From Minisyncoccota bacterium (GTDB taxonomy: Bacteria > Patescibacteriota > Minisyncoccia > Phycocordibacterales > UBA9973): a stretch of 64,000 nt of DNA. Positions 4,109 through 63,662 of this stretch are shown here, piece after piece; position 1 is the stretch's first letter, and every line of letters starts with the position of its first letter. The notes beneath the pieces were generated by a model. It was not told the DNA's origin. It ran no database searches and was given only the letters and a program-made list of their open reading frames with translations. The position numbers were made by a program, and so were the translations under genes. The stretch lies in contig JBAZVG010000001.1 in NCBI GenBank assembly GCA_041661005.1, positions 607,515-671,514 of the forward strand, written 5' to 3'.

Positions 4109-6250
4109 TTATTTTTTAAAGAAATTACTGTCCGCCTCTTTGATAGAAAGACCAATTCTCCCTTTTTCCCTATCAATAGATATAACTTTCACGGGCACTA
4201 TCATACCCTCCTTTATTATATCGCTAACTCGCTCGACACGAAATGGGGCTAATTCAGATATGTGCACCATACCATCTGTAAAAGCATTCAACTTAACAAA
4301 GGCCCCAAAGTCGGCTATTTTTACAACTTCTCCTTTTAATATTTCTCCCACAGCATACTCGTGCGTCATTTCCAAAACTATGGACTTGGCTTTCTCTGCG
4401 GAATCACCTTTCCCTGTGAAATAGACAGTTCCATCATCTTCAATGGTGATCTCTGCTCCAGACTTTTCCTTGATCTCCTTTATAGTTTTTCCGCCACCTC
4501 CTATCACCATGCCTATCATGTCCGGATTTATTTTAATAATCAATATCTTTGGAGCGTTTGGCGATATGTCAGCGCGAGGAATTTTAATTTCTTTTTCAAT
4601 TTTGTCTAAAATAATCGCTCTGGCGGCCTTCGCTTGCAACATTGCTTCACCCAATATTTTTATCGGCACACCTTCTACTTTTACATCGAGCTGTATAGCA
4701 GTGACCCCAACCCTCGTGCCTGCAACTTTGAAATCCATGTCTCCATAGTGATCCTCAGGACCTTGGATGTCAGTCAAGATTTTATATTCATCATCAGACT
4801 TATGCATCAATCCCATCGCGATACCAGCGACAGGCGCCTTGATCGGAACTCCGCCATCCATTAATGCCAAAGTCGAAGCGCAAATCGAAGCTTGAGAAGT
4901 AGAACCATTGGAAGCCATTGATTCAGACACTAGACGAATTGTATATGGGAATTCCAAAGCAGAAGGCAAAACCATCGCGAGCGCTTTTTCAGCCAAAGCG
5001 CCATGACCCACTTCTCGACGATTTGTAAATCCTGCTCGTCCTGTTTCTCCCGAAGAATATGGTGGAAAATTGTAATGATGCATGAATCTTTTTTCAGCTT
5101 TCGTCTGCATCCCATCAATCATGTGTCTATCTTCAGGACCGCCCAATGTCAGCACCGATAAGACATGTGTCCCCCCTCGGTAAAAAATCCCGGAACCGTG
5201 CAAGACAGACGAAACCCCTCCAGCTTGAGCGTAAAGATCTCGAAGCTCATCCATTTTTCTACCATCAGCTCGTTTGTTTTCTTCGATAGCGCTCTGGTGC
5301 AGAATATCGTTTTCTGTATCATCAAACAAATTGTCTTCCGAACTAAAATCTTCTCTCTCAGTATATTTGTCTGCAACCATTTTATTCCAAATGCTATGAA
5401 GCTCGTCGATTTTTGCCTTGCCCACGCCAGAAAATATAGCATCAGACATTTTAGGCAGAATGTTTTCGTTAAATAATTTAACCGATTCAGGATCTATTTC
5501 TTCTTTCGCAATGACTCTTTTTTCTTTACCTATTTCTTTTACAATTTTCTTTTGGAAGTCTTCCAATTTGGCGATCTCTTCACTTGCCCGAGTCAAAGCT
5601 ACCTCCAATTCTTTTTCATCAGTCTGATGAGCTGAAGCTTCAATCATATTTATATTTCCATTTTTACCACAGACAGTAATATCAAATTTATATTTGGCAT
5701 CGTCTACCCTCCAGCTATACGGAGCGTTAACTATCAAACTATCGTCACTTGACTCATGGGAAGCTTGCTTTCCTTCGGGGTCATATTTTCCAATACGCAC
5801 ACAACCAACTGGACCATTCCATGGAATATTAGAAACCGCGAGCGCGAGCGAAGCGGCGTTTACTGCTAAAATTGTCGGATCATTATCGTCAACAGAAATT
5901 ACAGTCACTATCACTTGCACCGCATGGCGAATCGATTGATCAAAAAGCGGACGCAAAGTCCTATCAATAACTCGACTGGCAAGTATCGCATCTTCGCTTG
6001 GCTTGCCTTCTCTTTTTACAAACTTCGAACCTGAAATTTTACCCGAAGCGTAAAATCTTTCCACATAATCCACTGTCAAATTAAAAAATCCCAAGCCATT
6101 TTGCTTGTCTTTAGACATACAAGCAGTGGCTAGAACTATCGTCTCGCCATACTTCAACATCACTGACCCATGGGCTTGCTCTGCCAAATCTGTAAAAATA
6201 GCAGTCAAATTTTTTCCACCAATCTCCACACTATATTCTTTTTTTTGCAT
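4109..6250 (-). CDS. pnp: polyribonucleotide nucleotidyltransferase (PNPase)
   Basis: Two RNase PH domains, KH and C-terminal S1 domain. The start MQKKEY at 6250 is preferred over the upstream in-frame Met at 6313. Confidence 0.92.
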   Translation of the reverse strand: MQKKEYSVEIGGKNLTAIFTDLAEQAHGSVMLKYGETIVLATACMSKDKQNGLGFFNLTVDYVERFYASGKISGSKFVKREGKPSEDAILASRVIDRTLRPLFDQSIRHAVQVIVTVISVDDNDPTILAVNAASLALAVSNIPWNGPVGCVRIGKYDPEGKQASHESSDDSLIVNAPYSWRVDDAKYKFDITVCGKNGNINMIEASAHQTDEKELEVALTRASEEIAKLEDFQKKIVKEIGKEKRVIAKEEIDPESVKLFNENILPKMSDAIFSGVGKAKIDELHSIWNKMVADKYTEREDFSSEDNLFDDTENDILHQSAIEENKRADGRKMDELRDLYAQAGGVSSVLHGSGIFYRGGTHVLSVLTLGGPEDRHMIDGMQTKAEKRFMHHYNFPPYSSGETGRAGFTNRREVGHGALAEKALAMVLPSALEFPYTIRLVSESMASNGSTSQASICASTLALMDGGVPIKAPVAGIAMGLMHKSDDEYKILTDIQGPEDHYGDMDFKVAGTRVGVTAIQLDVKVEGVPIKILGEAMLQAKAARAIILDKIEKEIKIPRADISPNAPKILIIKINPDMIGMVIGGGGKTIKEIKEKSGAEITIEDDGTVYFTGKGDSAEKAKSIVLEMTHEYAVGEILKGEVVKIADFGAFVKLNAFTDGMVHISELAPFRVERVSDIIKEGMIVPVKVISIDREKGRIGLSIKEADSNFFKK

Positions 6251-6413
6251 TTTTTTCTTGCCCCGAGCGAAGTCGAGGGGAGTTCGTATCCAGACTACAG
6301 TGTTGTTCCGCAATTTTGGAACACTACTTTGTGTCTAGACGCGAACCGATTAACTAATAAAATCTAATCAACTTATGATCATTATAGCATTTTTAGACTA
6401 AAAGGCAATGAAA

Positions 6414-6689
6414 TTAAAAAAGTTCTGAGTGAGTACCTATATCGAATAACACCAGAACAAGTTTATTTCCTTCAATCCTGTATATTAGTAAAATATTACC
6501 TTGAATATGGCATTCTCTATATCCATCATATTCACCATGCAAGTTGTGGTCTTGATAAATTGAACCAAGTTTCTCTTCTCTACATAAAGCATCAATGATT
6601 TTATTCAGTTCTGTTTCATTAAATTTACCAGAATGTTTTAATTTCTTAAAAGACTTTTCGTATTGCTTTGTTGGAAAAGGTATAAGCAT
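6414..6689 (-). CDS. yafQ: type II toxin, YafQ/RelE-family mRNA interferase
   Basis: 91 aa; C-terminal ...GYRECHIQGNILLIYRIEGNKLVLVLFDIGTHSELF is typical of the YafQ/RelE fold; lies 3 nt downstream of its antitoxin. Confidence 0.8.
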   Translation of the reverse strand: MLIPFPTKQYEKSFKKLKHSGKFNETELNKIIDALCREEKLGSIYQDHNLHGEYDGYRECHIQGNILLIYRIEGNKLVLVLFDIGTHSELF

Positions 6690-6691
6690 TT

Positions 6692-6958
6692 CTATCTTTT
6701 CATAATATCATCGTGCATTTCTTTTGCCGATGCATATCCTTTGCCATTTTTTATTACCCAATTAAATTCTTTGTCCCATCTTTTCCTATTAGCTCTTGTT
6801 TTCGTAGTGCTAGGTACAAAGGGCATACACTGATCAATTGCTACTTGATTTAAAAACATTTTCATACCAGAAGACATATCAATACCCATACCTTTAAATG
6901 CCTTTTGGGCTCTTATTTTAGTGGGACTATCTATTCTAATTTGTATTGTTGTGTTCAT
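6692..6958 (-). CDS. dinJ: type II antitoxin, DinJ/RelB family
   Basis: MNTTIQIRIDSPTKIRAQKAFKGMGIDMSSGMKMFLNQV resembles the RHH DinJ N-terminus. The internal Met at 6958 avoids overlap with the RT gene. Adjacent to yafQ. Confidence 0.75.
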   Translation of the reverse strand: MNTTIQIRIDSPTKIRAQKAFKGMGIDMSSGMKMFLNQVAIDQCMPFVPSTTKTRANRKRWDKEFNWVIKNGKGYASAKEMHDDIMKR

Positions 6959-7019
6959 ATACATAGCATATACCCCTGTAATGACAATGTCAATACATAA
7001 AAATATGTAAACACTTTTA

Positions 7020-8069
7020 TTACTCATTCAACCAAAACCAAAATTTATTTTGTATTTCCTGGCTTAGTTTATAAGCGTTCGCATGAGATAAAACACCAAG
7101 ATAAGATTGAAGGGAAGAACGAAGAGTCAACTCACTGACTTGCCCATTCCTATAACGATTCACATTTTCTTTCAGCTTCCTAAAAATTCTTTGTTTCGTT
7201 TTTGTTCTCAACTTAATATGTTCAGGCAAAATGACGTAGCCGAGAAAATCAACGCCACGGATATGTTTAGTGATATGAACTTTTTTAGGATGGAGTTCAA
7301 GACATAATTTTGTTTCCAAAAAATCTTGTATCGCCGGAATTAAATTTTTTAGGTATGTCTTATCCGTAGAAATTATTATGAAGTCATCAGTGTAGCGTGC
7401 GTAGTATTTTATTTTCAATTCATGCTTAACGAACTGGTCAAATTCATTCATATAGATATTGGCAAAAATCTGCGATGTCAGGTTGCCGATCGGCACACCC
7501 CGGCGATCAAAGAGATTTCTTTTGTTCGTCTCAAAGCTCTCGATGATTTCTCGCATGAGTTTCATCACTTTTTCATCCCTGATTCTTTTTTCCAGAATGC
7601 CGAGCAAAACATTATGATTCACAGAATCAAAAAACTTTCTGATGTCGCATTTCAGAGCATAACACCGGCGGGTACTATTTTGACTTACGGAGCGAGTCAT
7701 CTCTACAACCTTTTCCATCCCTTTGTGAGTTCCTTTACCGACACGACAAGAAAAAGAATCAGGAATAAAGGTCGGCTCAAATATCGGATTAAGTACATTA
7801 AAAATAGCGTGGTGGAGAACGCGGTCGCGGACAGTCGCTTTATGAATCCGGCGCAGTTTCGGGTCATGAATCCAAAACCCTTTATACGGTCCATGTTTGT
7901 ATATTCCGCTCTTTAAATCCCTATAAAGATCGAAAATGTTTTTTTCGAGATTAAGTTCAAAATCGCTGACGTCTATCCTGTTTCTTTTGTCCGCTTTAAA
8001 CATGTCCCATGCGCGAAATAATGAAGAAGGAGAAATTATTAACCAATATAAATCTTTATAGAATTTCAT
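7020..8069 (-). CDS. diversity-generating retroelement reverse transcriptase
   Basis: 349 aa; RT motifs including YARYTDDFII (YxDD) and the DGR-specific motif-4 PIGNLTSQ (IGxxxSQ); sits next to avd, TR and VR. Confidence 0.9.
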   Translation of the reverse strand: MKFYKDLYWLIISPSSLFRAWDMFKADKRNRIDVSDFELNLEKNIFDLYRDLKSGIYKHGPYKGFWIHDPKLRRIHKATVRDRVLHHAIFNVLNPIFEPTFIPDSFSCRVGKGTHKGMEKVVEMTRSVSQNSTRRCYALKCDIRKFFDSVNHNVLLGILEKRIRDEKVMKLMREIIESFETNKRNLFDRRGVPIGNLTSQIFANIYMNEFDQFVKHELKIKYYARYTDDFIIISTDKTYLKNLIPAIQDFLETKLCLELHPKKVHITKHIRGVDFLGYVILPEHIKLRTKTKQRIFRKLKENVNRYRNGQVSELTLRSSLQSYLGVLSHANAYKLSQEIQNKFWFWLNE

Positions 8070-8072
8070 TTT

Positions 8073-8423
8073 ATGAATGACCTAGATATCCCCATCTTAA
8101 GAAAATCCTACGACCTGTACAAAGAATTTTACAAACTAAGATTAGTAGTACCAAAACAAGATCGCTATGTTCTTTGGCAGAAATGCGAGAATACTTTGAT
8201 CACCGTCTTAGAAGGTGCATTGCTTGCCAGTCAGCAATCTAAAATGGAGAAACTACCAACACTGGAAAGAACCAGCGTTAAGCTAAACTTCCTGAAAGTT
8301 TGTGTTCGCCTTATGAAAGACGTCAAAGCTATTAATTCCAAAACTTATATCGTCATCGAAGCAGATCTCGACGAGATTGGAAAAATGCTTGGAGGGTGGA
8401 TTAAATCCACAAAAGAGCGTTAA
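8073..8423 (+). CDS. avd: DGR accessory variability determinant (Avd, four-helix-bundle family)
   Basis: 116 aa; the C-terminal EADLDEIGKMLGGWIKSTKER resembles BPP-1 Avd (EVGRILGSWIARVNRK); divergent from the RT gene with 3 nt between the two start codons. Confidence 0.8.
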   Translation: MNDLDIPILRKSYDLYKEFYKLRLVVPKQDRYVLWQKCENTLITVLEGALLASQQSKMEKLPTLERTSVKLNFLKVCVRLMKDVKAINSKTYIVIEADLDEIGKMLGGWIKSTKER

Positions 8424-8424
8424 C

Positions 8425-8456
8425 AGAAACTCCCACGATTTAAGGTGGGAGTTTCT
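8425..8456 (+). terminator. hairpin just after the avd stop (agaaactcccac-N8-gtgggagtttct), T-rich 3' flank
   Basis: Perfect 12-bp inverted repeat starting 2 nt after the avd stop; lies between avd and TR. Confidence 0.45.
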
Positions 8457-8478
8457 TATGAGAGAAGATGGAAATGCC

Positions 8479-8586
8479 GGGAGGCGCCAACACCGACGTT
8501 GTCGTTCTGGTTACCATTCCAGTTGTTGACATTGAGACCGTTCTCGTTGAAGTTACCGACGCACGAGACGTTACCAGCGTTGACCT
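8479..8586 (-). repeat. DGR template repeat (TR), sense on the minus strand
   Basis: 108 bp homologous to 9083-9190. On the minus strand it reads QVNAGNVSCVGNFNENGLNVNNWNGNQNDNVGVGAS with 12 AAC/AAT codons. Not inside any plausible ORF. Confidence 0.85.
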
Positions 8587-9000
8587 AACGTATATTGCTT
8601 GTTTTCATCCGTGTCACCAAGAATTGAGTTTTACCGTTTTTGCAAACCTATATACTCTTTCCTTTGTTTTAGATATAAAGTTCCAAACCTTATATCAGAT
8701 TTAATTTGGAAGCATCTGTATAAACAGAACTTCACTAAAAACAAGCAAGAATTTCCATCTCTATTCTTAATCGCACTCTACTGTGATCCGTAGACCATTA
8801 GTATTCCGGCGATATCTCAAGATGAGATATCTCGCGAGCTTGAACCGTAATCCAAACTACATTAGCAAGATGTAAATATATTAACTTAATGTATATAAAA
8901 TAGAAAGACCTCGCGAGAAGCAGAGCTTTCACGAGGTCTGACGAACCTCGTGGTTCGTATTTGTTATAGACAAGATAATATAAGAATCACCCACATCAGA

Positions 9001-9033
9001 GCCTCCGCGCCCCAGAAAAAATGGCGCGGAGGC
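9001..9033. promoter_or_regulatory. GC-rich hairpin (11-bp perfect stem gcctccgcgcc/ggcgcggaggc, 11-nt loop), 27 nt past the target stop and 50 nt from the VR 3' end
   Basis: Inverted repeat seen directly; no U-run on either strand, so not a canonical intrinsic terminator; position matches DGR hairpin/cruciform elements. Confidence 0.5.
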
Positions 9034-9059
9034 TCAAGTAGTCAAGAGGAGCAAATCCT

Positions 9060-9707
9060 CTAGGCTACAAGGGTCACTTTCAGGGAGGCGCCAACACCGA
9101 CGCGGTCGCCCTGGAGACCACCCCAGCCGATGACAGAGAGACCGTGCCCGCCGAAGATACCGACGCACGAGACGTCACCAGCGTTGACCTGCGCGGTCTT
9201 CACGGTACGCTCGGCGCAGGCCGCCCAAACGTTCGGGTTGGACCGCTTTCCGGTGCGACGATAGACGAGGATATCCTTGGTCACTTCGGCGATGGTCGTC
9301 GGCACTTCGTACTCAGGGGGCAACATCGCCACCTGCTCTTCGGGCGTCTTGCTCGTCGAGCCGGGAACAATTTCCCTGAGCATGATGTACAAACGCGGTT
9401 CGAGTACCGCGATGTCCGTGTGTGGCTGACCCACATGCCACGGATTTGTGTTGAAGTAGAACTTCGGCTGTCCGTCCGCCGAATGTAGCTCAAGCCACTT
9501 CGCGACCGTGAGCGGATTGCCGTCGAGCGCCGGCATCCCCATGAAGGCGAAGTGAGTGTCTTTCACCAGTTTGCCCTTGTTGAAGGGGCAGGCGCTCATG
9601 AGGACTTCCTCGACCGCCGGGCCCAACTTTTCAGTTGGGCCGTAGTAACTGACCCAGTCGGCTTGACCGAAGATGCGAACTCGGAGGTCCTGCGTTGTGC
9701 TTGTCAT
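9060..9707 (-). CDS. DGR variable (target) protein, VR at the C-terminus
   Basis: 215 aa; ~60% GC ORF in a ~35% GC context; the last 36 codons are the VR (9083-9190). Confidence 0.8.
   Translation of the reverse strand: MTSTTQDLRVRIFGQADWVSYYGPTEKLGPAVEEVLMSACPFNKGKLVKDTHFAFMGMPALDGNPLTVAKWLELHSADGQPKFYFNTNPWHVGQPHTDIAVLEPRLYIMLREIVPGSTSKTPEEQVAMLPPEYEVPTTIAEVTKDILVYRRTGKRSNPNVWAACAERTVKTAQVNAGDVSCVGIFGGHGLSVIGWGGLQGDRVGVGASLKVTLVA
9083..9190 (-). repeat. DGR variable repeat (VR)
   Basis: 108 bp; 19 differences from TR, all at TR adenine positions (minus-strand sense). AAC in TR becomes GAC/ATC/GGC/CAC/CTC/CGC in VR, and AAT becomes TCT or GGT. Confidence 0.85.
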
Positions 9708-9765
9708 TGCTTTATCCTTTCGGTTGCCAGATTCGCTCTGGCTTTTGTTGCGGCCTGTCTCAGTT

Positions 9766-9850
9766 GAGAGACGAGCCCTCTGTCGCCAAATAAATTATTG
9801 GCTCAAAAAGTTTACCCGTCCCGTCGCTTTAGCGAAGGAGGGCTCGTCTC
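9766..9850 (-). promoter_or_regulatory. 13-bp perfect inverted repeat (gagacgagccctc ... gagggctcgtctc) enclosing two small hairpins, in the 5' leader of the DGR target gene
   Basis: Seen directly; nested stems gccaa-taaattat-ttggc and cgc-ttta-gcg. Confidence 0.35.
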
Positions 9851-9945
9851 ATGTAGGGATTCTTGTAAAAGAGCAGTTCTTTAAACTGTTTTTAGTATAA
9901 CATGAAAGAGGACAACCTGTCAAGAAAATTTAGAAATGTCTTTTT

Positions 9946-10455
9946 CTATTTCACCCCGATCAAATACTTGCGAGGATTCTCGGAAAGATCTACGAAGTCG
10001 TCTACCGCTTCGCGAAGCTTACCGGAAGTTGATTGACTAAACGAGACGACTTCTACTTGCACCCCCATCGTCTGCAAGTATTCCACGAGTGGAACAAAGT
10101 CTCCATCACCAGAAACGATAACCGCAGAGTCGAGGCGAGGCGACATTTTGATAGCGTCTACTGCGAGCCCCACGTCCCAATCCGCCTTCTTGCTTCCCCC
10201 GGCGAATATTTGCAAGTCTTTTGTTTTAGTTTCGATACCGAGCTTGGACAACGCTTCAAAGAAATTCTTTTCATCCCCTGCTTCGGTAGTGATGACATAC
10301 GCCACTGCGCGCACAAGCTTCCTGCCCGCCACTGCATCGCGCAAAACCGCGCCGAAATTTACTCGCGCTTTATATAAATTGCGAGCCGAATGGTATAAAT
10401 TTTGAGTATCAATAAAAACCCCAACCCTCTGTTCTTTATGTTTTATTACTGTCAT
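9946..10455 (-). CDS. NYN-domain (LabA-like, COG1432) protein
   Basis: MTVIKHKEQRVGVFIDTQNLYHSARNLY... then VIVSGDGDFVPLVEYL; the internal Met at 10455 is preferred. Confidence 0.75.
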   Translation of the reverse strand: MTVIKHKEQRVGVFIDTQNLYHSARNLYKARVNFGAVLRDAVAGRKLVRAVAYVITTEAGDEKNFFEALSKLGIETKTKDLQIFAGGSKKADWDVGLAVDAIKMSPRLDSAVIVSGDGDFVPLVEYLQTMGVQVEVVSFSQSTSGKLREAVDDFVDLSENPRKYLIGVK

Positions 10456-10489
10456 GTAATTATTATAGCAGATATTAAAATTTGTCGCA

Positions 10490-10590
10490 GGCGTACTTTT
10501 TAGAAAGCCTTGCGCAGGCTGACGAGCCGAGCAGTTCGCTGGCAAAGCTTTGCCAGATAGATTGCTTTATGAAAAGTATGCCAAGAAAGA
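10490..10590 (-). repeat. intergenic TIR/hairpin repeat family 1, copy A (reverse orientation)
   Basis: Shares ~100 bp with 13517-13609 and 23539-23631; 18-bp terminal inverted repeats; central variable hairpin ctggcaaagctttgccag. Confidence 0.7.
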
Positions 10591-10600
10591 ATTTTAATAT

Positions 10601-10864
10601 CTAAACGAGTTCAACCTTCTTCATCAAAGCGTTGTAGCGAGCCTTGTTTGTTCTTTCCAAATATTTCAAATGAGTGCGTCTGTTGGCCACCATCTTGATC
10701 AAACCCCTTCGAGAATGATTGTCTTTCTTGTGTTTCTTTAAATGTTTTGCCAATTCATCAATCGCCGCAGAAATAATAGCCACCTGCACCTCTGGAGAGC
10801 CTGTGTCCTTATCATGAATCTGATTTTTCTTTATAATTGTCTGCTTTTTCTTTACTGCTAACAT
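10601..10864 (-). CDS. rpsO: 30S ribosomal protein S15
   Basis: TGSPEVQVAIISAAIDELAKHLKKHKKDNHSRRGLIKMVANRRTHLKYL matches the S15 consensus; internal Met at 10864 (88 aa). Confidence 0.9.
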   Translation of the reverse strand: MLAVKKKQTIIKKNQIHDKDTGSPEVQVAIISAAIDELAKHLKKHKKDNHSRRGLIKMVANRRTHLKYLERTNKARYNALMKKVELV

Positions 10865-10962
10865 ACAAAGGATAATAGCATAAACTGGCAAAAATTGCAA
10901 TCCCACCCTCTCCTCAAGATTTTTTGTATAAAATATATTGTGCGACATGGTAGAATATATTC

Positions 10963-11949
10963 ATGGCATCAATTAAAGATCTAAAAAACCAATTTCTTGA
11001 ATATATAGAAATAGAAAAAGGACGAGCGATAAGAACCGTAGAAAATTACGATCATTATTTGACTGTATTTCTGGAGCAGACAAAAATTACAGACCCCAAA
11101 AACATAACCGACGATAAAGTCCGAGACTTTCGTATTTGGCTCAATCGTCAACCCGCATTGCCGGAGCACATGCGAGGCAGGTCCACTGGAAACAATCGCG
11201 TGACAGGCGACACCATAAAAAAGAAAACACAGAATTATTATTTAATAGCTCTCAGAAGTTTCCTAAAATTTTTAACAAAAAGAAATATTAATTCCCTACC
11301 GGCAGACCATATAGAGCTCGCAAAAATCAGTGAAAGACAAATAGACGTAATTTCTCAAGAAGAATTGAAAAGACTTTTAGACGCTCCGAATCAAGAAAAA
11401 AATCCTGAAAGAAAAGCTCGCGACAAGGCAATACTAGAGATGCTTTTTTCCACCGGTTTGCGTGTTTCTGAACTGTGTTCGTTGAAAAATGATTTAGATC
11501 TGCATTTAGACGAATTTTCTATCCGTGGAAAAGGAGGAAAGGTCCGCGTAGTTTTCTTGTCTGACGAAGCCAAGAAGGCGGTGAAAGATTATTTAACTTT
11601 GCGAAAAGACATGTCGGACGCTCTTTTTGCAAAAGTAAATGATGAAACTTTTAAAGGAAAAAATTTGAATCAAAAAAAGAATAACTCAGAAATAGAAGAT
11701 GGCCTAACTCGCCGTTCGATAGAAAGAATTGTAAAAAGATACGCCACGATCGCCGGCATATCCAAAAAAGTAACTCCCCATGTGATTCGTCATGTCTTCG
11801 CGACTGACCTCTTAAGCAACGGCGCAGACATTCGTTCTGTGCAAGCCATGCTCGGCCATGCCAACATAGGTACTACACAAATATATACTCACGTGACGGA
11901 CAAACATTTGCGGGATATACACAAGAAATATCATGGCATCAATAAATAA
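10963..11949 (+). CDS. xerC: tyrosine recombinase XerC/XerD family
   Basis: 328 aa; C-terminal HVIRHVFATDLL...GHANIGTTQIYTHV (R-H-R-Y catalytic residues); extended -10 TGgTAGAAT lies 6 nt before the ATG. Confidence 0.88.
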   Translation: MASIKDLKNQFLEYIEIEKGRAIRTVENYDHYLTVFLEQTKITDPKNITDDKVRDFRIWLNRQPALPEHMRGRSTGNNRVTGDTIKKKTQNYYLIALRSFLKFLTKRNINSLPADHIELAKISERQIDVISQEELKRLLDAPNQEKNPERKARDKAILEMLFSTGLRVSELCSLKNDLDLHLDEFSIRGKGGKVRVVFLSDEAKKAVKDYLTLRKDMSDALFAKVNDETFKGKNLNQKKNNSEIEDGLTRRSIERIVKRYATIAGISKKVTPHVIRHVFATDLLSNGADIRSVQAMLGHANIGTTQIYTHVTDKHLRDIHKKYHGINK

Positions 11950-12707: not shown

Positions 12708-13514
12708 ATGCGATTAGTTTCTTGGAACGTAAACGGGATAAGGGCAGTGCATAAAAAAGGACTTCTTATGCCTTTTATAAAAAAACATAAACCAGATATT
12801 TTTTGTATCCAAGAAACCAAAGCACAAAAAGATCAGAGCGAGGTAGATCTGTCAGACTATGAAGAATATTGGAACTCAGCTACACGCAAAGGATACAGTG
12901 GCACCGCAATATTTGTACACAAATCTTTTGAGAAACCACTCGCTGTCACACTCGACTTTCCACAGAACATTGTGAAACAATATAATTTGTCTACCGATAA
13001 TTTTGGAGATGTGAATGCTGAAGGCCGAGTTTTAACTTTAGAATTTAAAGATTTTTATATTGTAAATGTTTACACACCAAATAGTAAACGTGAACTCACA
13101 CGGTTGAAACTCAGACATAAACAATGGGACCCTGCCTTTCTTGAATACATGAAAAACCTAGAAAGGCGGGGCAAGTCCGTCATTTTCTGCGGAGATTTAA
13201 ATGTTGCGCACACACCTGATGATCTTGCGAATCCAGAAACCAATCACACGACGCACGGTTTCACAGACGAGGAACGTGAAGGAATCCAAAATGTAATCGA
13301 TTCCGGTTTCACAGATACTTTTAGAATGTTTACAAATGGAAACGGACACTATACATGGTGGAGTCCTTTTAGAAATGCGCGAGCGAGGAACATAGGGTGG
13401 AGAATAGATTATATTTTCGTAAGCTCTGAATTATTAAAGAAAATAGTGAGCTCAAAAATATTTCCTGAAGTTTTAGGTTCTGATCATTGTCCGATTGTGC
13501 TTGAAATGTCTTAA
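12708..13514 (+). CDS. xth: exodeoxyribonuclease III (AP endonuclease, EEP family)
   Basis: MRLVSWNVNGIRA... with a C-terminal histidine motif; internal Met at 12708 preferred. Confidence 0.88.
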   Translation: MRLVSWNVNGIRAVHKKGLLMPFIKKHKPDIFCIQETKAQKDQSEVDLSDYEEYWNSATRKGYSGTAIFVHKSFEKPLAVTLDFPQNIVKQYNLSTDNFGDVNAEGRVLTLEFKDFYIVNVYTPNSKRELTRLKLRHKQWDPAFLEYMKNLERRGKSVIFCGDLNVAHTPDDLANPETNHTTHGFTDEEREGIQNVIDSGFTDTFRMFTNGNGHYTWWSPFRNARARNIGWRIDYIFVSSELLKKIVSSKIFPEVLGSDHCPIVLEMS

Positions 13515-13516
13515 AA

Positions 13517-13609
13517 ACTCTTTCTTGGCATACTTTTTATAAAGCAATCTATCTGGCGTTGCTACGCCAGCGAACTGCTCGGCTCGTCAGCCTGCGCAAG
13601 GCTTTCTAA
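13517..13609 (+). repeat. intergenic TIR/hairpin repeat family 1, copy B
   Basis: Starts 3 nt after the xth stop; central hairpin ctggcgttgctacgccag (compensatory relative to copies A and C). Confidence 0.7.
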
Positions 13610-13664
13610 AAAATACGCCTGCAACGAGTTTTTAACTAAAGAGTTTTGTGCTATTATTTTAACT

Positions 13665-21307: not shown

Positions 21308-23527
21308 TTGTGTTATATTTCAAGTGTGACCACAGACACACAACATTTTTTTGGACTAAACAATAAACAAAAAGAAGCGGCGATGCACATAAGCGGTCCG
21401 CTTCTTATTATTGCAGGGGCGGGTGCGGGAAAAACTAAAACAATAACGCATAGAATTGTGAATTTGATAAAAAACGGAGTCGCCCCAGAGAGAATTTTAG
21501 CGGTTACGTTCACAAATAAAGCAGCAAAGGAAATGCGGGAACGGATTATCGCTGAAATTAAGAAAAATTCCCACGAAGCAGGGGGCCAAGAAAAAACCCC
21601 ATTCGTCAGCACGTTTCATTCATTGGGGGTCTATATCATAAAAGAAAATGCCAGATTGCTGGGATTAACCAAGCACTTTACGATTCTAGATGAAGGAGAC
21701 GCGACATCACTCATAAAAGAAATACTAAAGGAGTTAGGAATAGATCCGAAACAATATGATCCAAAAAAAATAAAAAATATAATATCTCGCGAAAAAGGAA
21801 AATTCACACATTTGTCAGACTATGCAGAGAGGGAAAGGGGAACATATGGTTTGATGGTAACGCAAGTTTGGGGTTTATATGAAAAACAAAAAATGAAAGA
21901 AAATTCGCTAGACTTCGATGATCTGCTTTTAAAGGCGACGAAATTGTTAAAGGACAATCTGGAAATAAGGAAAATTTATCAGGAGAAATGGGAATATATT
22001 CATATCGATGAATATCAAGACACAAATGAGGTGCAGTATTTGATGTCTAAAATGTTAGCGGAAAATAATGAAAATATCTGCGTAGTTGGAGACGCAGACC
22101 AAAACATCTACTCCTGGCGCGGAGCAAATTTGAAAAACATTTTAAGTTTCGAGAAAGATTATCCGAGTACAAAGATAGTTTTATTAGAAGAGAATTACAG
22201 ATCAACTCAAAACATCTTGGAGGCGGCCAATGTGGTAATTAAAAAAAACAAATACAGGCCAGACAAGAATTTATTCACAAAAAACAAAACTGGCGAAAAA
22301 ATAGGCCTATATGAAGCACTCGATGAAAGCGATGAGTCTGATTTTGTCGCGACAAAAATTCTAGAGATTTTAGATGGCTCGCCTGCGAGAGAAATATCCT
22401 CGGACTCACCACGAAAATTTTCTGCTGAAAATTTTCTCTGTCCGTCGTCGCCACTCCTACCAAGGGTTCCCTCGAGGACATTTCTCTCTTCGGCTGATAA
22501 CGCAGTAAGTTTCCTTGAGCGGGGTGTCTCGCAGGCTGACGAGCCGAGAGGCAGCGCTCCGCGAGCGCGCGGAGACAGCGACCCCGCTGAGACAGCACCT
22601 GCTCCCTTGTCCGAAATCGCTATATTATATCGCGCTAATTTTCAGTCGCGGGCGCTAGAAGAAGCAATGCTGAAATACAATATCCCATATCAAGTTTTGG
22701 GCGTTAAATTTTTCGAAAGACGTGAAATAAAAGACACCTTGGCATATCTTCGCGCAGCGCTAAACCCCGACAGTTTGTCGGACATAAAACGAATAATTAA
22801 TTTCCCTGCGCGAGGTATCGGCAAGGTTACTTTGGCTAAAATTTTTGCCGGACAAAAAGAAAACTTGCCAATTAAGGTAAAAATTAAAATAAATAATTTT
22901 TATAAAATATTAGAAGAAATAAAAGAAAAAATAGAAAGCGAAAAAGCAAGCAAAGCGATAAAATTTGTAGTAAAAAGGTCAGGCATCGAGACAGAACTCT
23001 CATCTGGCACCGAAGAAGATATGGAGAGGTTTGAAAACATAAAAGAACTCGCCACACTAGCGCTAAAATATGATAATCTGGAGAATGGTCTTGGTGTAGA
23101 AAAGCTTTTAGAAGACGCCTCACTCGCGTCAGATCAAGATTCACTGATTATCAGCGAACCCGCCTCCACCAAAGGCTTCGGCGAGGCAAAGGAAAAAAAG
23201 AAAGGAGAAAACTCTGTGAAATTAATGACCGTGCATGCTTCAAAAGGATTGGAGTTTAAGTATGTCTTTGTTGCCGGATTAGAGGATGGACTTTTCCCCA
23301 ACCAAAGACGCAACGAAGAAGTGGATAAGGATAGTGAAGAAGAGCGTAGACTTTTTTATGTGGCGATCACTCGCGCTAAAGAAAAATTATTCTTATCGTT
23401 CGCGAATTTCCGCACCATCTTCGGAGCGCGCAACATCAACGCTCCATCAGAATTTATATCGGACATACCAGCAGATTTATTGGAAAAAGAGGGAGAAAAA
23501 GATAGAATAAAGACAATTTATATATGA
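21308..23527 (+). CDS. uvrD: ATP-dependent DNA helicase UvrD/PcrA family
   Basis: LNNKQKEAAMHISGPLLIIAGAGAGKT (motifs Q/I); motifs through VI present; carries a ~220-bp in-frame repeat insertion; TTG start. Confidence 0.88.
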   Translation: MCYISSVTTDTQHFFGLNNKQKEAAMHISGPLLIIAGAGAGKTKTITHRIVNLIKNGVAPERILAVTFTNKAAKEMRERIIAEIKKNSHEAGGQEKTPFVSTFHSLGVYIIKENARLLGLTKHFTILDEGDATSLIKEILKELGIDPKQYDPKKIKNIISREKGKFTHLSDYAERERGTYGLMVTQVWGLYEKQKMKENSLDFDDLLLKATKLLKDNLEIRKIYQEKWEYIHIDEYQDTNEVQYLMSKMLAENNENICVVGDADQNIYSWRGANLKNILSFEKDYPSTKIVLLEENYRSTQNILEAANVVIKKNKYRPDKNLFTKNKTGEKIGLYEALDESDESDFVATKILEILDGSPAREISSDSPRKFSAENFLCPSSPLLPRVPSRTFLSSADNAVSFLERGVSQADEPRGSAPRARGDSDPAETAPAPLSEIAILYRANFQSRALEEAMLKYNIPYQVLGVKFFERREIKDTLAYLRAALNPDSLSDIKRIINFPARGIGKVTLAKIFAGQKENLPIKVKIKINNFYKILEEIKEKIESEKASKAIKFVVKRSGIETELSSGTEEDMERFENIKELATLALKYDNLENGLGVEKLLEDASLASDQDSLIISEPASTKGFGEAKEKKKGENSVKLMTVHASKGLEFKYVFVAGLEDGLFPNQRRNEEVDKDSEEERRLFYVAITRAKEKLFLSFANFRTIFGARNINAPSEFISDIPADLLEKEGEKDRIKTIYI
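22389..22486. repeat. TIR-bounded repeat family 2 (reverse orientation) inserted in frame in uvrD
   Basis: Termini gagaaatatcctcggac ... gtcctcgaggacatttctc; core gacggacagagaaaattttcagcagaaaattttcgtggtgagtccgag shared with 24020-24133 and 56167-56256. Confidence 0.7.
22521..22585. repeat. palindromic repeat family 3 (GGGGTGTCTCGCAGGCTGACGAGCCGAG...GGAGACAGCGACCCC) in frame in uvrD
   Basis: Shared with 62263-62327 and 62690-62754 (reverse); inner stem ctccgcg/cgcggag. Confidence 0.7.
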
Positions 23528-23538
23528 AACTCTTTCTT

Positions 23539-23631
23539 GGCATACTTTTTATAAAGCAATCTATCTCCGCAAGCTTGCGGAGCGAACTGCTCGGCTCGTC
23601 AGCCTGCGCAAGGCTTTCTAAAAAGTACGCC
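23539..23631 (+). repeat. intergenic TIR/hairpin repeat family 1, copy C
   Basis: Starts 12 nt after the uvrD stop; central hairpin ctccgcaagcttgcggag. Confidence 0.7.
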
Positions 23632-23656
23632 TGCAACGAATTTCATAATTAAAAAT

Positions 23657-38844: not shown

Positions 38845-38975
38845 AATTCCAAAACTTGTTGCAGGTGTAGTTTTAGATAGACATTGCGCAGGCTGTCGAG
38901 CCGAGCATAGCAAATTTTCAGCAGAAAATTATGTCGTGTCTAGATAAAACTATACCAAGAAAGAGTTTTGGAATT

Positions 38976-61232: not shown

Positions 61233-63662
61233 TTGATGTCCAATATACGCAAGAGTATTTTTAGATTACAGAAGCCATGGGAGCCAAGTGGTGACCAACC
61301 AGAGGCTATTTCAAAGCTTGTGGAGGGACTTGAGAAGGGGATGAAAAAGCAGACATTACTCGGGGCGACAGGCACGGGCAAGACTTTTACGATGGCAAAT
61401 GTGATAGCGCGATATAATAAACCAACTCTAGTAATAGCGCACAACAAAACTCTAGCAGCGCAACTCGCGCAGGAGTTTAAATTATTTTTTCCAGATTCCG
61501 CGGTGCATTATTTTGTTTCTTATTATGATTATTATCAGCCAGAGGCTTATATGCCTGCCTCAGATACTTACATTGAAAAAGATGCATCTATCAACAAAGA
61601 AATAGACATGCTTCGTCACGCTTCTACTCAAGCGCTACTCACTCGTCCGGATGTCATTATTGTGGCTTCTGTGTCTTGCATTTATGGATTGGGGTCGCCC
61701 GAGGAATATGAAAAGGTAAATCTGAAATTAGAAGTTGGGCAGAAGGCAGACCGAATGTCTCTGATGAAATCTCTCATTGCTATACATTTTGAACGCACAA
61801 ACGCTGATCTTACCCCTGGAACTTTTCGCTCTATTGGTTCACGAGTAGAGTTAATGCCGGTTTCTGAATCGGTAATGTATCAGATTGAAATGTCGGGTGG
61901 AATAATTTCTAAAATAACAAAAGTTGATCCAGTTTCTTCACATATTCTCAAAGAAGAAAAAAATATTTTTGTTTTTCCGGCTAAACATTTTATTACTGAA
62001 GATATAAAAAAGAAAAAAGCGTTAGTAGAAATTAAAAAAGAATTAGCGAGTCAGCTGAAAAAATTTACAAAAGAGGGAAAACTTCTAGAAGCAGAGCGAA
62101 TAAAACGTCGTACAAATTATGATCTCGCAATGATCAAAGAAGTCGGTTATTGTAGTGGAATTGAAAATTATTCTAGACATTTGTCCGGCAAAAGCGAAGG
62201 AGAACCCCCAGAAACTTTGCTTTCTTATTTTCCGCACACAGGAGCCAGTAATTTTCTTTTCCGGGGTGTCTCGCAGGCTGACGAGCCGAGAGGCAGCGCT
62301 CCGGAAGCATCCGGAGACAGCGACCCCGAAAAAGAAGAATTACTGGCTCCTGTTCCGGATTTTTTAACCATCATCGACGAATCGCATGTAACCTTACCTC
62401 AACTTCAAGGTATGTATGCAGGGGATGCTTCACGCAAGAAAACTCTCGTAGATTATGGTTTTCGTCTACCTTCTGCTAAAGACAATAGACCCCTAAAATA
62501 CGAGGAATTTCAGGAACGCATCGGACAGGTGATTTACACGAGCGCGACCCCAAGTGAACAAGAAAGAAGCCAAAGTGAACAAATCGTAGAACAAATAATT
62601 CGTCCGACTGGGCTTGTGGATCCGGAAACGGTAGTGCGTCCAGTATCTGAAGGAAAAATTTTGGGTAATGGCGAGAAATCTTCTTTTTTGGGGTCGCTGT
62701 CTCCGCGCACTCGCGGAGCGCTGCCTCTCGGCTCGTCAGCCTGCGAGACACCCCAAAAAAGAAATTTCTTTCCATACCCAGGACAGATTTCAGACTTTAT
62801 AAGTGAAGCAGAAAAAACTATCAAGAAAGGTTTTCGTGTTTTAGCTACGACGCTGACTAAAAAAATGGCGGAAGATCTAACCACTTATTTAAAAGAACGT
62901 GGATTCAAAGCTGAATACTTACATTCTGATATCAAAACAATGGAACGCATTAAAATACTTACTAGGTTTAGACGTGGAGGAAAAGGGGAACTTGCCCCGT
63001 CCCAAGCCGGAGGCTTTGGTGCGGGGTTTGATGTTTTAGTTGGAGTGAATCTTTTGCGTGAGGGGCTTGATTTGCCGGAAGTTGCGCTGATTGGCATTCT
63101 CGATGCTGACAAAGAAGGATTTCTACGTTCCGATACAGCGCTCATTCAAACTATCGGCCGAGCTGCTCGCAATAGTGAAGGCAAAGTAATTCTTTATGCA
63201 GATGTTTTGACGGGTTCAATGGAGCGGGCTCTGGGGGAGACCGTTCGCCGTCGTAATATTCAGCTTGCCTACAACAAAAAGCATGGCATTACCCCGAAGA
63301 CTATTATGAAAAAGATCAAAGATATTACTGAAGAAATGGAAAGCGAACATGGAAAAACTGTCAATGCAGAATTGGCGCTTGATTTAGAAGTCTTTAAAAA
63401 AGCTTATTCTAAAGAACTTAGTAAAGACCTGCCTCGACTAGGCAAGGCGGGCGAAAACCTTGCCCGCAAAAAAGTAAACTCTGAATTTTGGAATGAAATT
63501 CTATCAGATGAAGAAAGGGGAAATCTCATTTATGAAAAAATAATAAAGATAAAAGAACGCGAGATGAATAAAGCAGTTAAAGAATTGGATTTTGAAACAG
63601 CTGCGATTTTGCGTGATGAAATTGGAGTGCTCAAAGTGCGTTTGGAAAAGAAAGATCAATAA
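61233..63662 (+). CDS. uvrB: excinuclease ABC subunit B
   Basis: Helicase motifs (GATGTGKT), beta-hairpin, C-terminal UvrB/UvrC interaction domain; two in-frame family-3 repeat insertions. Confidence 0.92.
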   Translation: MMSNIRKSIFRLQKPWEPSGDQPEAISKLVEGLEKGMKKQTLLGATGTGKTFTMANVIARYNKPTLVIAHNKTLAAQLAQEFKLFFPDSAVHYFVSYYDYYQPEAYMPASDTYIEKDASINKEIDMLRHASTQALLTRPDVIIVASVSCIYGLGSPEEYEKVNLKLEVGQKADRMSLMKSLIAIHFERTNADLTPGTFRSIGSRVELMPVSESVMYQIEMSGGIISKITKVDPVSSHILKEEKNIFVFPAKHFITEDIKKKKALVEIKKELASQLKKFTKEGKLLEAERIKRRTNYDLAMIKEVGYCSGIENYSRHLSGKSEGEPPETLLSYFPHTGASNFLFRGVSQADEPRGSAPEASGDSDPEKEELLAPVPDFLTIIDESHVTLPQLQGMYAGDASRKKTLVDYGFRLPSAKDNRPLKYEEFQERIGQVIYTSATPSEQERSQSEQIVEQIIRPTGLVDPETVVRPVSEGKILGNGEKSSFLGSLSPRTRGALPLGSSACETPQKRNFFPYPGQISDFISEAEKTIKKGFRVLATTLTKKMAEDLTTYLKERGFKAEYLHSDIKTMERIKILTRFRRGGKGELAPSQAGGFGAGFDVLVGVNLLREGLDLPEVALIGILDADKEGFLRSDTALIQTIGRAARNSEGKVILYADVLTGSMERALGETVRRRNIQLAYNKKHGITPKTIMKKIKDITEEMESEHGKTVNAELALDLEVFKKAYSKELSKDLPRLGKAGENLARKKVNSEFWNEILSDEERGNLIYEKIIKIKEREMNKAVKELDFETAAILRDEIGVLKVRLEKKDQ
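62263..62327. repeat. palindromic repeat family 3 copy in frame in uvrB (encodes GVSQADEPRGSAPEASGDSDP)
   Basis: Inner stem ctccgga/tccggag, compensatory relative to the uvrD copy. Confidence 0.7.
62690..62754. repeat. palindromic repeat family 3 copy, reverse orientation, in frame in uvrB (encodes GSLSPRTRGALPLGSSACETP)
   Basis: Inner stem ctccgcg-cact-cgcggag. Confidence 0.7.

Follow-up and report, generated by a model that had tools for sequence, protein, structure and literature searches.

In the rpsO-pnp operon of E. coli and the Bacillota, a hairpin in the pnp leader is used for autoregulation, and in E. coli it is an RNase III/PNPase site. The prototype DGR, that of Bordetella phage BPP-1, has all of its parts oriented in the same direction. 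A DGR clade confined to Patescibacteria, nearly all of whose members are cellular, was described by Roux et al. 2021 (PMC8144416). Here we consider a stretch of 64,000 nucleotides (the window) that brings together an rpsO-pnp locus, a DinJ-YafQ-type toxin-antitoxin (TA) pair, and a DGR that can be likened both to Patescibacteria (CPR) DGR clade 2 (PMC8144416) and to the BPP-1 prototype. Judging from its pnp, which is 78–82% identical in the best segments (80–85% by global alignment) to orthologues in Nomurabacteria MAGs, the source organism is a small groundwater-type member of Candidatus Nomurabacteria (Patescibacteria). We consider it highly probable that the locus arose through two insertions into a resident arrangement of xer beside rpsO-NYN-pnp, one being a repeat and the other a composite block of DGR and TA pair.

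As in E. coli and the Bacillota, rpsO (ribosomal protein S15; 10601–10864, minus strand; Pfam Ribosomal_S15, E = 5.2e-30), itself preceded just upstream by a promoter-like site (10900->10872), lies upstream of pnp (polynucleotide phosphorylase; 4109–6250, minus strand; RNase_PH, KH and S1 domains) on the same strand. The separation of about 4.3 kb reported in the initial annotation is borne out, with 4,350 bp measured. A further likeness is that pnp has a predicted promoter of its own (TTGCCT-16-TATAAT with TG; 6381–6408, minus strand), kept in relatives, and a long conserved hairpin in its 5' leader (6281–6347, minus strand), in which eight of 13 pairs carry compensatory changes (RNAalifold, 10 relatives); this promoter, like all others given here, is a consensus match only. 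Unlike those operons, Patescibacteria have a highly conserved NYN-domain gene (LabA/DUF88-type) in between, located in the window at 9946–10455 on the minus strand (PF01936, E = 8.6e-36). It occupies this position in 44 Patescibacteria loci among those fetched, is 75–95% identical among relatives whose pnp is 57–85% identical, and at least 120 database clusters among the matches listed are 92% or more identical to it. These comparisons place NYN in the core of the rpsO-pnp locus, better conserved than pnp. The direct adjacency of rpsO and pnp that had been taken as the norm holds outside Patescibacteria, where the sampled loci with both genes have a spacing of 40–436 bp and no NYN, but not in the 44 Patescibacteria loci.

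The Xer-type tyrosine recombinase gene (10963–11949, plus strand; Phage_integrase, E = 1e-41; XerD/XerA-like matches) does lie just beyond rpsO, as had been observed. The same pairing, xer(-)/rpsO(+), occurs in relatives with an empty site (e.g., L001, L003 and L005), which marks the gene as a conserved neighbour of rpsO that stands outside the accessory block. The usual order in this lineage would thus be xer adjoining rpsO-NYN-pnp, with pnp under its own promoter and structured leader.

The smaller of the two proposed insertions is a structured intergenic repeat of ~130 nt in the gap between rpsO and NYN (10472–10600, nhmmer). The initial annotation had placed this repeat, its family-1, at the edge of an island. 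The family is real, with three more full copies (13509–13637, 23522–23649 and 38845–38974) and two short ones (62264–62320 and 62697–62760) in the window by nhmmer; the copy in question, being situated between rpsO and NYN, forms no boundary of the accessory block. L001 has 39 nt in the corresponding gap and L004 has 23 nt, and a related piece of the repeat is found upstream of rpsO in L088 and L089. On this evidence the repeat is a small insertion independent of the other one.

The second insertion would comprise ~3.5 kb (~6416–9946, minus strand), filling the space that separates the stop codon of NYN from the -35 box of pnp. Compared with the empty site of L001, the block begins just past the stop codon of NYN and finishes at that of yafQ, and the junction L001 9841/9842 corresponds to window 9947 and 6415; base-level mapping was done against L001 only, with a comparable split at the empty site of L005. 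In L001, L003 and L005 the NYN stop codon leads directly into the pnp promoter, with promoter and leader intact, while L004 has a NYN-pnp gap of only 18 nt and lacks the conserved leader. The synteny comparison therefore upholds part of what had been called an accessory island, since ~6416–9946 is missing from L001, L003, L004 and L005; it also shows NYN remaining between rpsO and pnp in relatives, so that the interval is not one unit. Nor is a conserved operon disrupted, as had been supposed: the downstream end of the block directly abuts the conserved pnp promoter (-35 box) and leader, and since pnp retains both, the operon is extended instead. Since each unit of the block, as well as pnp, has its own promoter-like site and the target gene is followed by strong hairpins, expression of pnp is probably driven, as in relatives, by the promoter that belongs to it.

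The block resembles integrase-mediated islands and integrative elements in its presence and absence among close relatives, its TA pair and its cargo of atypical composition. Unlike them, it consists of two units and has no integrase inside it, no tRNA or tmRNA target belonging to it, and no flanking direct repeats; attachment-site-like repeats were found neither at the edges first suggested nor at the true ones. The compositional profile did not single out the interval either. The only outlier within the block is the DGR target gene (GC 60.6%, GC3 75.8%, z = +4.6 among 52 ORFs of the window), and as the same GC trait accompanies the target family wherever it occurs, it is not the mark of a recent foreign island.

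The contents of the interval named in the initial annotation (NYN, DGR and DinJ/YafQ) were confirmed by Pfam and NCBIfam matches and by alignment of the template repeat (TR) with the variable repeat (VR). The DGR cassette spans ~2.7 kb and contains a target gene with VR, TR, an inverted avd and a reverse transcriptase (RT) gene. Within the ~135–225 nt separating NYN from the start of cassette homology lies the best promoter-like site of the region (TTGACA-18-TATACT with TG; 9894–9923, minus strand; 11/12 consensus), followed in the target's 5' UTR by a hairpin with 23-nt arms (9768–9850, minus strand; inverted repeat I4, 87% complementary) that has no Rfam match. The target gene (9060–9707, minus strand), with the VR at its 3' end, encodes 215 aa and has 204 homologues at 58–84% identity in a family found in Patescibacteria. 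It departs from known DGR targets in that it matches no Pfam, NCBIfam or PHROG family, and a search for the C-type-lectin fold gave insignificant structural matches only, lectin-like or FGE-like; no signal peptide was obvious by eye.

The VR (9083–9190) and the TR (8479–8586), both read on the minus strand, align over 108 nt with 82% identity, and all 19 mismatches fall at TR adenines (19 of the 28 present). The last 19 nt of the VR (9083–9101) are identical to the TR and IMH-like. Two terminator-like hairpins found by RNA folding follow the target gene, one G+C-rich, of 13 bp and 24 nt past the stop codon (8999–9035, minus strand), and the other at 8907–8938; both are kept beside orphan targets, and homology to L081 reaches 8898. 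A 12-bp hairpin between the converging 3' ends of TR and avd (8425–8456; -20.1 kcal/mol) is probably a two-way terminator or a 3' structure of the TR RNA. The accessory variability determinant gene, avd (8073–8423, plus strand), scores 56.9 bits against Pfam bAvd (cut-off 40) and 76.6 bits against NCBIfam DivGenRetAVD, below the cut-off of 80, and its start codon is 3 nt from that of the RT gene on the opposite strand. The latter (7020–8069, minus strand) is intact and encodes 349 aa with the motifs IGNLTSQ and YTDD (RVT_1, E = 4.6e-27). The cassette shares with the described DGRs the RT signature motif, Avd, adenine-only TR/VR differences and a VR that forms the 3' part of the target, closes with G+C-rich sequence identical to the TR and is followed by a hairpin; it differs from BPP-1 in that avd is inverted relative to TR and RT. 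The DGR itself is real.

The other unit of the block, predicted to be a RelB/DinJ-YafQ type II TA pair with its own promoter, consists of an antitoxin gene (6692–6958, minus strand; Pfam RelB, E = 5.7e-9; TIGR02384, 55.4 bits, cut-off 45.65), for which L089 guided the choice of start codon (another possible ATG ends at 6964), and a YafQ/RelE-family toxin gene of 91 aa (6414–6689, minus strand; Pfam YafQ_toxin, 97.8 bits, cut-off 30; TIGR02385, 74.7 bits, cut-off 27.9). As in E. coli DinJ-YafQ/RelBE, the antitoxin gene comes first, two bases separate its stop codon from the toxin start, the family matches exceed curated cut-offs, and a promoter-like site upstream of the pair (TTGACA-17-TATGCT; 6965–6993, minus strand) holds an inverted repeat, TGACATTGTCA. 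One of the catalytic positions of the E. coli toxin, Asp67, is Asn in the predicted YafQ when aligned by eye. Unlike the E. coli system, this pair, a predicted TA only, lies next to a DGR at an operon boundary of a Patescibacterium chromosome.

Relatives show every state of the locus: an empty site, target and TA pair without TR-avd-RT (L089), and a cassette at trxR/ftsZ. The nearest cassette, in L091, has an RT 86% identical to that of the window and adjoins phage terL (phrog_38, E = 2.2e-79) and terS on one 10-kb contig, which is unusual for clade 2, described as cellular; this adjacency faintly hints at a phage link. In L083 and L107 the order is trxR, target-avd-RT, ftsZ, with RT genes that are split, and the L083 contig and the empty-site locus L005 belong to one assembly. 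Orphan targets are present in L081, L085 and L111. The inverted avd is common to all related cassettes, whose TR/VR mismatches lie mostly at adenines, with 0–2 at other bases. Nucleotide homology is limited to the cassette (window 9720->7015 for L091, 9810->7017 for L083 and 9776->6997 for L107), and among the cassette loci examined only the window and L089 have dinJ and yafQ. In L089, known from one metagenome contig, TR-avd-RT is missing through a 1.87-kb deletion whose junction falls in a 12-nt promoter-like microhomology: ATATATTTACAT at the upstream breakpoint (8870–8881, minus strand) pairs with ATGTATTGACAT in the dinJ promoter (6987–6998). The downstream breakpoint overlaps the promoter-like site of the TA pair, so that the deletion stops exactly there.

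Several other explanations have to be weighed against two independent insertions. It might be that the whole 4.3-kb interval, NYN, DGR and TA pair alike, is one repeat-bounded island inserted by the Xer recombinase and kept there through the TA pair. All of the named genes are indeed present, part of the interval is missing in close relatives and the target gene deviates strongly in GC content. However, the highly conserved NYN core gene sits at the same place in 44 loci, Xer adjoins rpsO in empty-site genomes, the repeat stands between two resident genes with no partner at the other edge, att repeats are lacking, and the target family is GC-anomalous wherever found; we regard this explanation as very improbable. 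NYN, Xer and the repeat were each rejected as island parts on synteny. An assembly chimera, in which a DGR contig was joined into the rpsO-pnp region, might be suspected from the source being a metagenome-assembled genome and from the sharp contrast in composition between target and flanks. It is scarcely conceivable given that L088 and L089, assembled independently from other samples, both contain the NYN-target junction, that L089 also has the TA-pnp junction, and that there is a record of the same protein from a contig of 813 kb.

If the DGR cassette and the TA pair were instead a single co-mobile module, for example phage-delivered with the TA pair as an addiction system, their adjacency in the window, the remnant of that adjacency in L089, the phage packaging genes beside the closest cassette and the sparing of the TA pair and its promoter by the L089 deletion would all be accounted for. 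Yet about 20 other cassette copies, including the phage-linked L091, have no adjoining dinJ/yafQ, nucleotide homology among cassettes ends at the RT stop codon, and the TA pair (GC 29–33%) is unlike the cassette in composition. We find this reading quite improbable; of the idea that a TA pair stabilizes the module, what stands is that the block includes one. The block is better described as a composite of two units, DGR cassette and dinJ-yafQ pair, with what by these comparisons are separate histories. It is also unlikely, although it deserves consideration, that the target-DGR-TA block was ancestral between NYN and pnp and was cleanly lost in L001, L003, L004 and L005. DGR parts have been lost in relatives (L089, the orphans L081, L085 and L111, and the split RTs of L083 and L107), and the window, L089 and L001 form a trichotomy: pnp identities are about equal (84–85%), rpsO favours grouping the window with L089, and NYN favours the window with L001. 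Given this near-equidistance, the lineage of the window and L088-L089 could have gained the block, or L001 could have lost it. On the other hand, four empty sites would require several clean losses, and the genome of L005 carries its cassette between trxR and ftsZ (L083), a site also used in L107 and L081, which suggests that trxR/ftsZ is the older location.

With two insertions as the preferred explanation, the block would probably have entered the operon boundary through illegitimate or short-homology recombination, the cassette having possibly been transferred by phage beforehand. Once in place, TR RNA (8586->8479) would be copied by RT together with Avd, with errors at adenines, and the cDNA would then replace the VR (9190->9083), that is, the last ~36 codons of the target. 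This mechanism is taken from the family; what the locus itself offers is the adenine-only TR/VR differences, 19 nt of identity at the 3' end, an intact RT bearing the signature motif, and avd. The cassette also decays easily, as in the sister population L089, where the deletion between the 12-nt microhomologies has removed TR-avd-RT, leaving an orphan target and the TA pair. In L088, the contig of which ends before TR, possession of TR-avd-RT can be presumed from 237 nt of shared spacer. Across 3 kb the L088 and L089 sequences share 97.8% identity, and all 19 differences in the 670-nt target region fall within the VR.

The gene calls made in the initial annotation between rpsO (10864-10601, minus strand) and pnp (6250-4109, minus strand) were borne out by family searches with the ORFs listed there. 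The interval holds, on the minus strand, an NYN-domain gene (10455-9946; PF01936, E 8.6e-36), a 215-aa target ORF without family match (9707-9060), a reverse transcriptase (RT) gene (8069-7020; RVT_1, E 4.6e-27; motifs IGNLTSQ and YTDD), and genes for a RelB/DinJ antitoxin (6958-6692) and a YafQ/RelE toxin (6689-6414). The avd gene (8073-8423) is on the plus strand, and past rpsO comes a gene for a Xer-type recombinase (10963-11949). The NYN gene, the diversity-generating retroelement (DGR) and the toxin-antitoxin (TA) pair had been taken for a single accessory island edged by a repeat, with a recombinase gene just past rpsO. We find the observation largely right and its interpretation partly right: the DGR cassette and the TA pair do lie inside the interval and are missing there in close relatives, whereas the NYN gene, the recombinase and the repeat fall outside the accessory block, which contains no integrase, att sites or tRNA target.

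The gene order of related genomes is what separates resident from accessory genes. A scan with the pnp protein, taking one genome per species, gave 80 loci, with which the proteins of the window were then compared; the closest were Candidatus Nomurabacteria MAGs, at 78-82% identity. When the ORFs between rpsO and pnp were listed for each locus and searched with the NYN protein, an NYN gene was found on the same strand between the two genes in 44 Patescibacteria loci. The two genes abut in two other Patescibacteria loci (L036 and L039). Outside Patescibacteria, wherever a sampled locus (from Bacillota, Chloroflexota or another group) had both genes, they were separated by 40-436 bp without an intervening NYN gene. 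Leaving aside the near-identical pairs L088/L089 and L007/L021, the NYN protein (LabA/DUF88-type) is 75-95% identical among taxa where pnp is 57-85% and Xer 58-71% identical, so that it is better conserved than either, and usually better than S15 as well. A database search with it returned at least 8,000 matches, among which the 120 top-ranking clusters each had 92% identity or more. The pairing of xer (minus) with rpsO (plus) recurs in many of the same loci. Because both are conserved at the locus, we regard the NYN and Xer genes as residents; judged by these comparisons, the reference order for the lineage is xer beside rpsO-NYN-pnp. A supposedly foreign gene is thus among the most conserved of its locus, and "islands" in uncultured lineages can be misjudged if the gene order of model organisms serves as the reference. 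Our literature search found no link between an NYN gene and the rpsO-pnp operon.

Synteny thus confirmed an accessory block and shifted its edges: the relatives have an empty site between NYN and pnp. From the NYN stop to pnp there are 18-215 nt in the closest empty-site relatives (L001, L003, L004 and L005), and this site is filled in the window, as it is in L088 and L089, two related loci discussed below. Against L001 the break is sharp, with L001 9841/9842 corresponding to window positions 9947 and 6415, and the accessory block is thus placed at ~6416-9946 (3.5 kb), from just past the NYN stop to the yafQ stop, with the -35 box of pnp immediately downstream.

The marks of an integrated island are largely missing from this block. 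Its edges share no direct repeat beyond chance (longest match 6 nt, equalled in 258 of 300 shuffles), and neither do the edges originally proposed, 6314-6413 and 10456-10600 (longest match 9 nt, equalled in 18 of 300 shuffles). The 9-mer TGCTATAAT, the only notable direct repeat shared by the latter, was considered as an att site and rejected, since at both positions it sits in a promoter-like -10 box and is therefore a promoter motif. As an extended -10 on the minus strand, it precedes both pnp (6381-6389) and the NYN gene (10462-10470). No tRNA gene lies closer to the block than 18.6 kb; across the entire window tRNAs were the only Rfam families to reach gathering score, and no family matched at E <= 1 over 6000-11200. 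The sole recombinase gene is outside the block and is kept beside rpsO in the empty-site genomes too.

Nor is the composition of the block foreign throughout. Against a window mean of 38.8% GC (sd 4.7; 52 ORFs), the target gene is the most extreme outlier (60.6% GC, GC3 75.8%, A 20.6%, z +4.6), followed by the resident NYN gene (47.7%). By contrast, avd (38.8%) and RT (37.3%) are host-like, and dinJ (33%) and yafQ (30%) are slightly low. The GC profile that had been proposed as a check therefore singles out one gene. It would be tempting to read even that gene as the marker of a recent foreign island, and we rejected this because every close homologue is equally biased: the target gene has 52-62% GC at all their loci, with flanks at 32-50%, which makes the bias a trait of the gene family. 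Across the family (loci L081-L116) the target is GC-rich, with low A in the copy of the window, and RT and avd of the same cassette are host-like. A gene family at ~60% GC within genomes at ~40% GC is a testable lead.

The DGR and the TA pair of the block belong to known kinds of system. To judge from its repeats and protein families, the DGR is genuine. The template repeat (TR, 8479-8586) and the variable repeat (VR, 9083-9190), the latter at the 3' end of the target ORF, differ at 19 of 108 nt, all of them at TR adenines (19 of 28), and their 3' 19 nt are identical; no further VR copy for this TR was found within the window. The avd product matches Pfam bAvd at 56.9 bits (cut-off 40) and NCBIfam Avd at 76.6 bits, slightly below the cut-off of 80. 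By analogy with the DGR family, RT and Avd would make error-prone copies of the TR RNA, the errors falling at adenines, and the resulting cDNA would replace the VR, so that ~36 C-terminal codons of the target protein would be varied. The avd gene is inverted relative to TR and RT, its start codon 3 nt from that of RT (8067-8075), so that the TR RNA and avd run towards each other and meet at one hairpin (8425-8456). The same inverted layout is seen in all related cassettes (L083, L091, L094-L116 and L118-L123), IMG/VR viral contigs included. Strong hairpins follow the target gene and the TR, and the target, dinJ-yafQ and pnp have separate promoter-like sites.

The TA pair seems to have a history of its own. 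The toxin is well supported by general models (YafQ_toxin 97.8 bits, cut-off 30; TIGR02385 74.7 bits, cut-off 27.9), with the specific YafQ model TIGR00053 at 73.6, below its cut-off of 87.25; the antitoxin matches RelB (36.2 bits, cut-off 22.4) and TIGR02384 (55.4 bits, cut-off 45.65). Nucleotide homology to other copies is limited to the cassette, that is, the target, spacer, TR, avd and RT: it runs over window positions 9720 to 7015 in L091 (79.5% over 2.7 kb), 9810 to 7017 in L083 and 9776 to 6997 in L107. Genes for dinJ and yafQ turned up in the window and L089 alone, and adjoin no other cassette copy compared; the pair thus counts as a unit in its own right, adjacent to the cassette by chance. 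As far as these alignments tell, the block is a composite of a DGR cassette and a TA pair. Going by the TA family, YafQ would be an mRNA-cleaving toxin restrained by DinJ.

Loci of target homologues, which were fetched and compared with the window, show the cassette in several places and states. In all related cassettes the differences between TR and VR are dominated by adenines, with 0-2 at other bases. In L083 and L107 the cassette lies between trxR and ftsZ, and in both the RT is split into two ORFs (1896-2964 and 9610-10667, respectively); the assembly that contains the L083 contig also contains L005, where the NYN-pnp site is empty. In L081 the target gene alone is found between trxR and ftsZ, and in L085 it is flanked by ileS and tsaD; no TR was found within 1.5 kb of either target. 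Orphan targets without TR also occur in L089, L111 and L112. L093 has kept the target, has no avd or RT, and retains a 31-nt match resembling VR/TR (~7076-7106).

A probable loss of cassette parts is seen on comparing L088 and L089, which were sampled from two wells in the same aquifer, share 97.8% identity across 3 kb and have the xer-rpsO-NYN-target order of the window. After the target, L088 continues with the spacer of the window up to the contig end, and L089 passes directly to dinJ-yafQ-pnp, without TR, avd and RT. The junction in L089 falls in a 12-nt imperfect repeat, ATATATTTACAT (window 8870-8881) and ATGTATTGACAT (window 6987-6998), the ATGTATTGACAT copy lying in the dinJ promoter. 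Two facts, the long form common to the window and L088 and the adenine-type substitutions in the VR of L089, make a 1.87-kb deletion in L089 the simplest reading. Survival of deletions may be biased by the TA pair; a deletion ending at the TA promoter would fit this, as a single case. Over the 670-nt target region compared between L088 and L089, all 19 differences lie inside the VR, and the element therefore appears to have been recently active in that lineage, which lends indirect support to ongoing mutagenic homing.

A link to phages comes from the closest cassette (RT 86%, Avd 85%, target 75%), on a 10-kb contig (L091, 1-10209). Its 13 TR/VR mismatches are all at adenines, and it is located downstream of a gene for a phage large terminase (phrog_38, E 2.2e-79), at a distance of 1.7 kb. 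Ahead of that terminase gene come one for the small terminase and two for DNA methyltransferases, one of which has a ParB-like N-terminal domain. Synteny with this set is seen in IMG/VR viral contigs (L122; the two methyltransferase genes only in L120) that likewise carry an inverted avd-RT pair. A scan of viral contigs with the RT found relatives at 60% identity or less, and no target-family homologue was detectable in the contigs so found; a scan with the target protein itself gave no match. The gene neighbourhood of L091 suggests that phages may move the cassette between genomes. The Patescibacteria DGR clade is described as almost entirely cellular (Roux et al., PMC8144416). Taken together, these loci form a natural series for one DGR family (an empty site, a full cassette, a cassette with decayed RT, an orphan target left by microhomology deletion, and a near relative beside phage packaging genes), which can help to study the movement and decay of DGRs in Patescibacteria.

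The protein that the DGR would diversify belongs to a family with 204 homologues at E <= 0.001; those listed are 58-84% identical, and wherever a source is named it is a Patescibacteria lineage or a MAG classified no further than 'bacterium'. No Pfam family was found in it or in the 30 homologues examined, NCBIfam and PHROG searches with it gave no family, and a sequence-profile search of the PDB gave only noise. Its AlphaFold model has a pLDDT of 72.7, low over the VR. Foldseek found no significant match in PDB or BFVD; the best matches were lectin-like, FGE-like or DUF1566 proteins, all at E > 1. No signal peptide was obvious by eye.

The repeat that had been placed at the island edge is better understood as a separate small insertion. 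Elements of this family are intergenic and ~80-130 nt long, with full copies at 10472-10600, 13509-13637, 23522-23649 and 38845-38974 and shorter ones at 62264-62320 and 62697-62760. The first of these lies between two resident genes, where it occupies nearly the entire rpsO-NYN spacer (23 nt long in L004 and 39 nt in L001), and lacks a counterpart at the far end of the block. L088 and L089 have a related piece upstream of rpsO instead, and relatives have only core pieces, at other positions. The repeat is therefore an insertion independent of the block. Its predicted fold has a long closing stem, two internal hairpins and a GCAGGCUGACGAGCCGAG segment that is conserved; compensatory changes are seen at 19 of the 30 predicted pairs, and the outer stems vary between copies with complementarity retained. 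No Rfam family matched it. A hammerhead-like reading of its CUGACGAG motif was dropped, since the covarying stems do not fit and Rfam was empty.

Structure is also conserved on the other side of the block. The pnp promoter-like site, TTGCCT-16-TATAAT with an upstream TG (6408 to 6381), can be aligned to the spacer between NYN and pnp in L001 and L005, and the leader to this spacer in L001, L003 and L005; pnp would be transcribed from its own promoter, as in relatives. Downstream of this conserved extended -10 promoter the 5' leader contains a conserved long hairpin (6281-6347, minus strand), in which 8 of 13 predicted pairs show compensatory changes among ten Nomurabacteria-like loci. A second hairpin lies at 6261-6280 (minus strand). 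In E. coli, pnp has an autoregulatory leader hairpin, which the predicted hairpin of the window recalls. The rpsO-NYN-pnp order and this hairpin bear on RNA decay in reduced genomes and are, with the GC-rich target family, the phage-linked relative and the structured repeat, the more original leads of this analysis. We speculate, as a possibility that we consider less likely than not, that rpsO-NYN-pnp is a Patescibacteria-wide RNA-decay operon, in which a very conserved NYN endoribonuclease would work with PNPase behind a structured pnp leader, and whose NYN/pnp unit boundary would tolerate cargo including DGR cassettes, possibly phage-carried.

Unrelated cargo of more than 400 bp is found at the NYN/pnp junction in 13 of the 44 loci. 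We did not accept this junction as a specific hotspot, since by tblastn coordinates the junction downstream of pnp apparently varies in the same loci too, and the pattern is therefore one of ordinary variability at operon boundaries. Among the ORFs checked between NYN and pnp, L042 (8414-9760) carries a HEPN-nucleotidyltransferase pair and an IS200-like Y1 transposase gene, L054 (5438-7213) a Bro-N protein and a PL14 polysaccharide lyase, and L009 a FabH-like enzyme. Between rpsO and NYN, L045 has a four-helix-bundle gene (8854-9222; 23S rRNA IVP-type, Avd-like).
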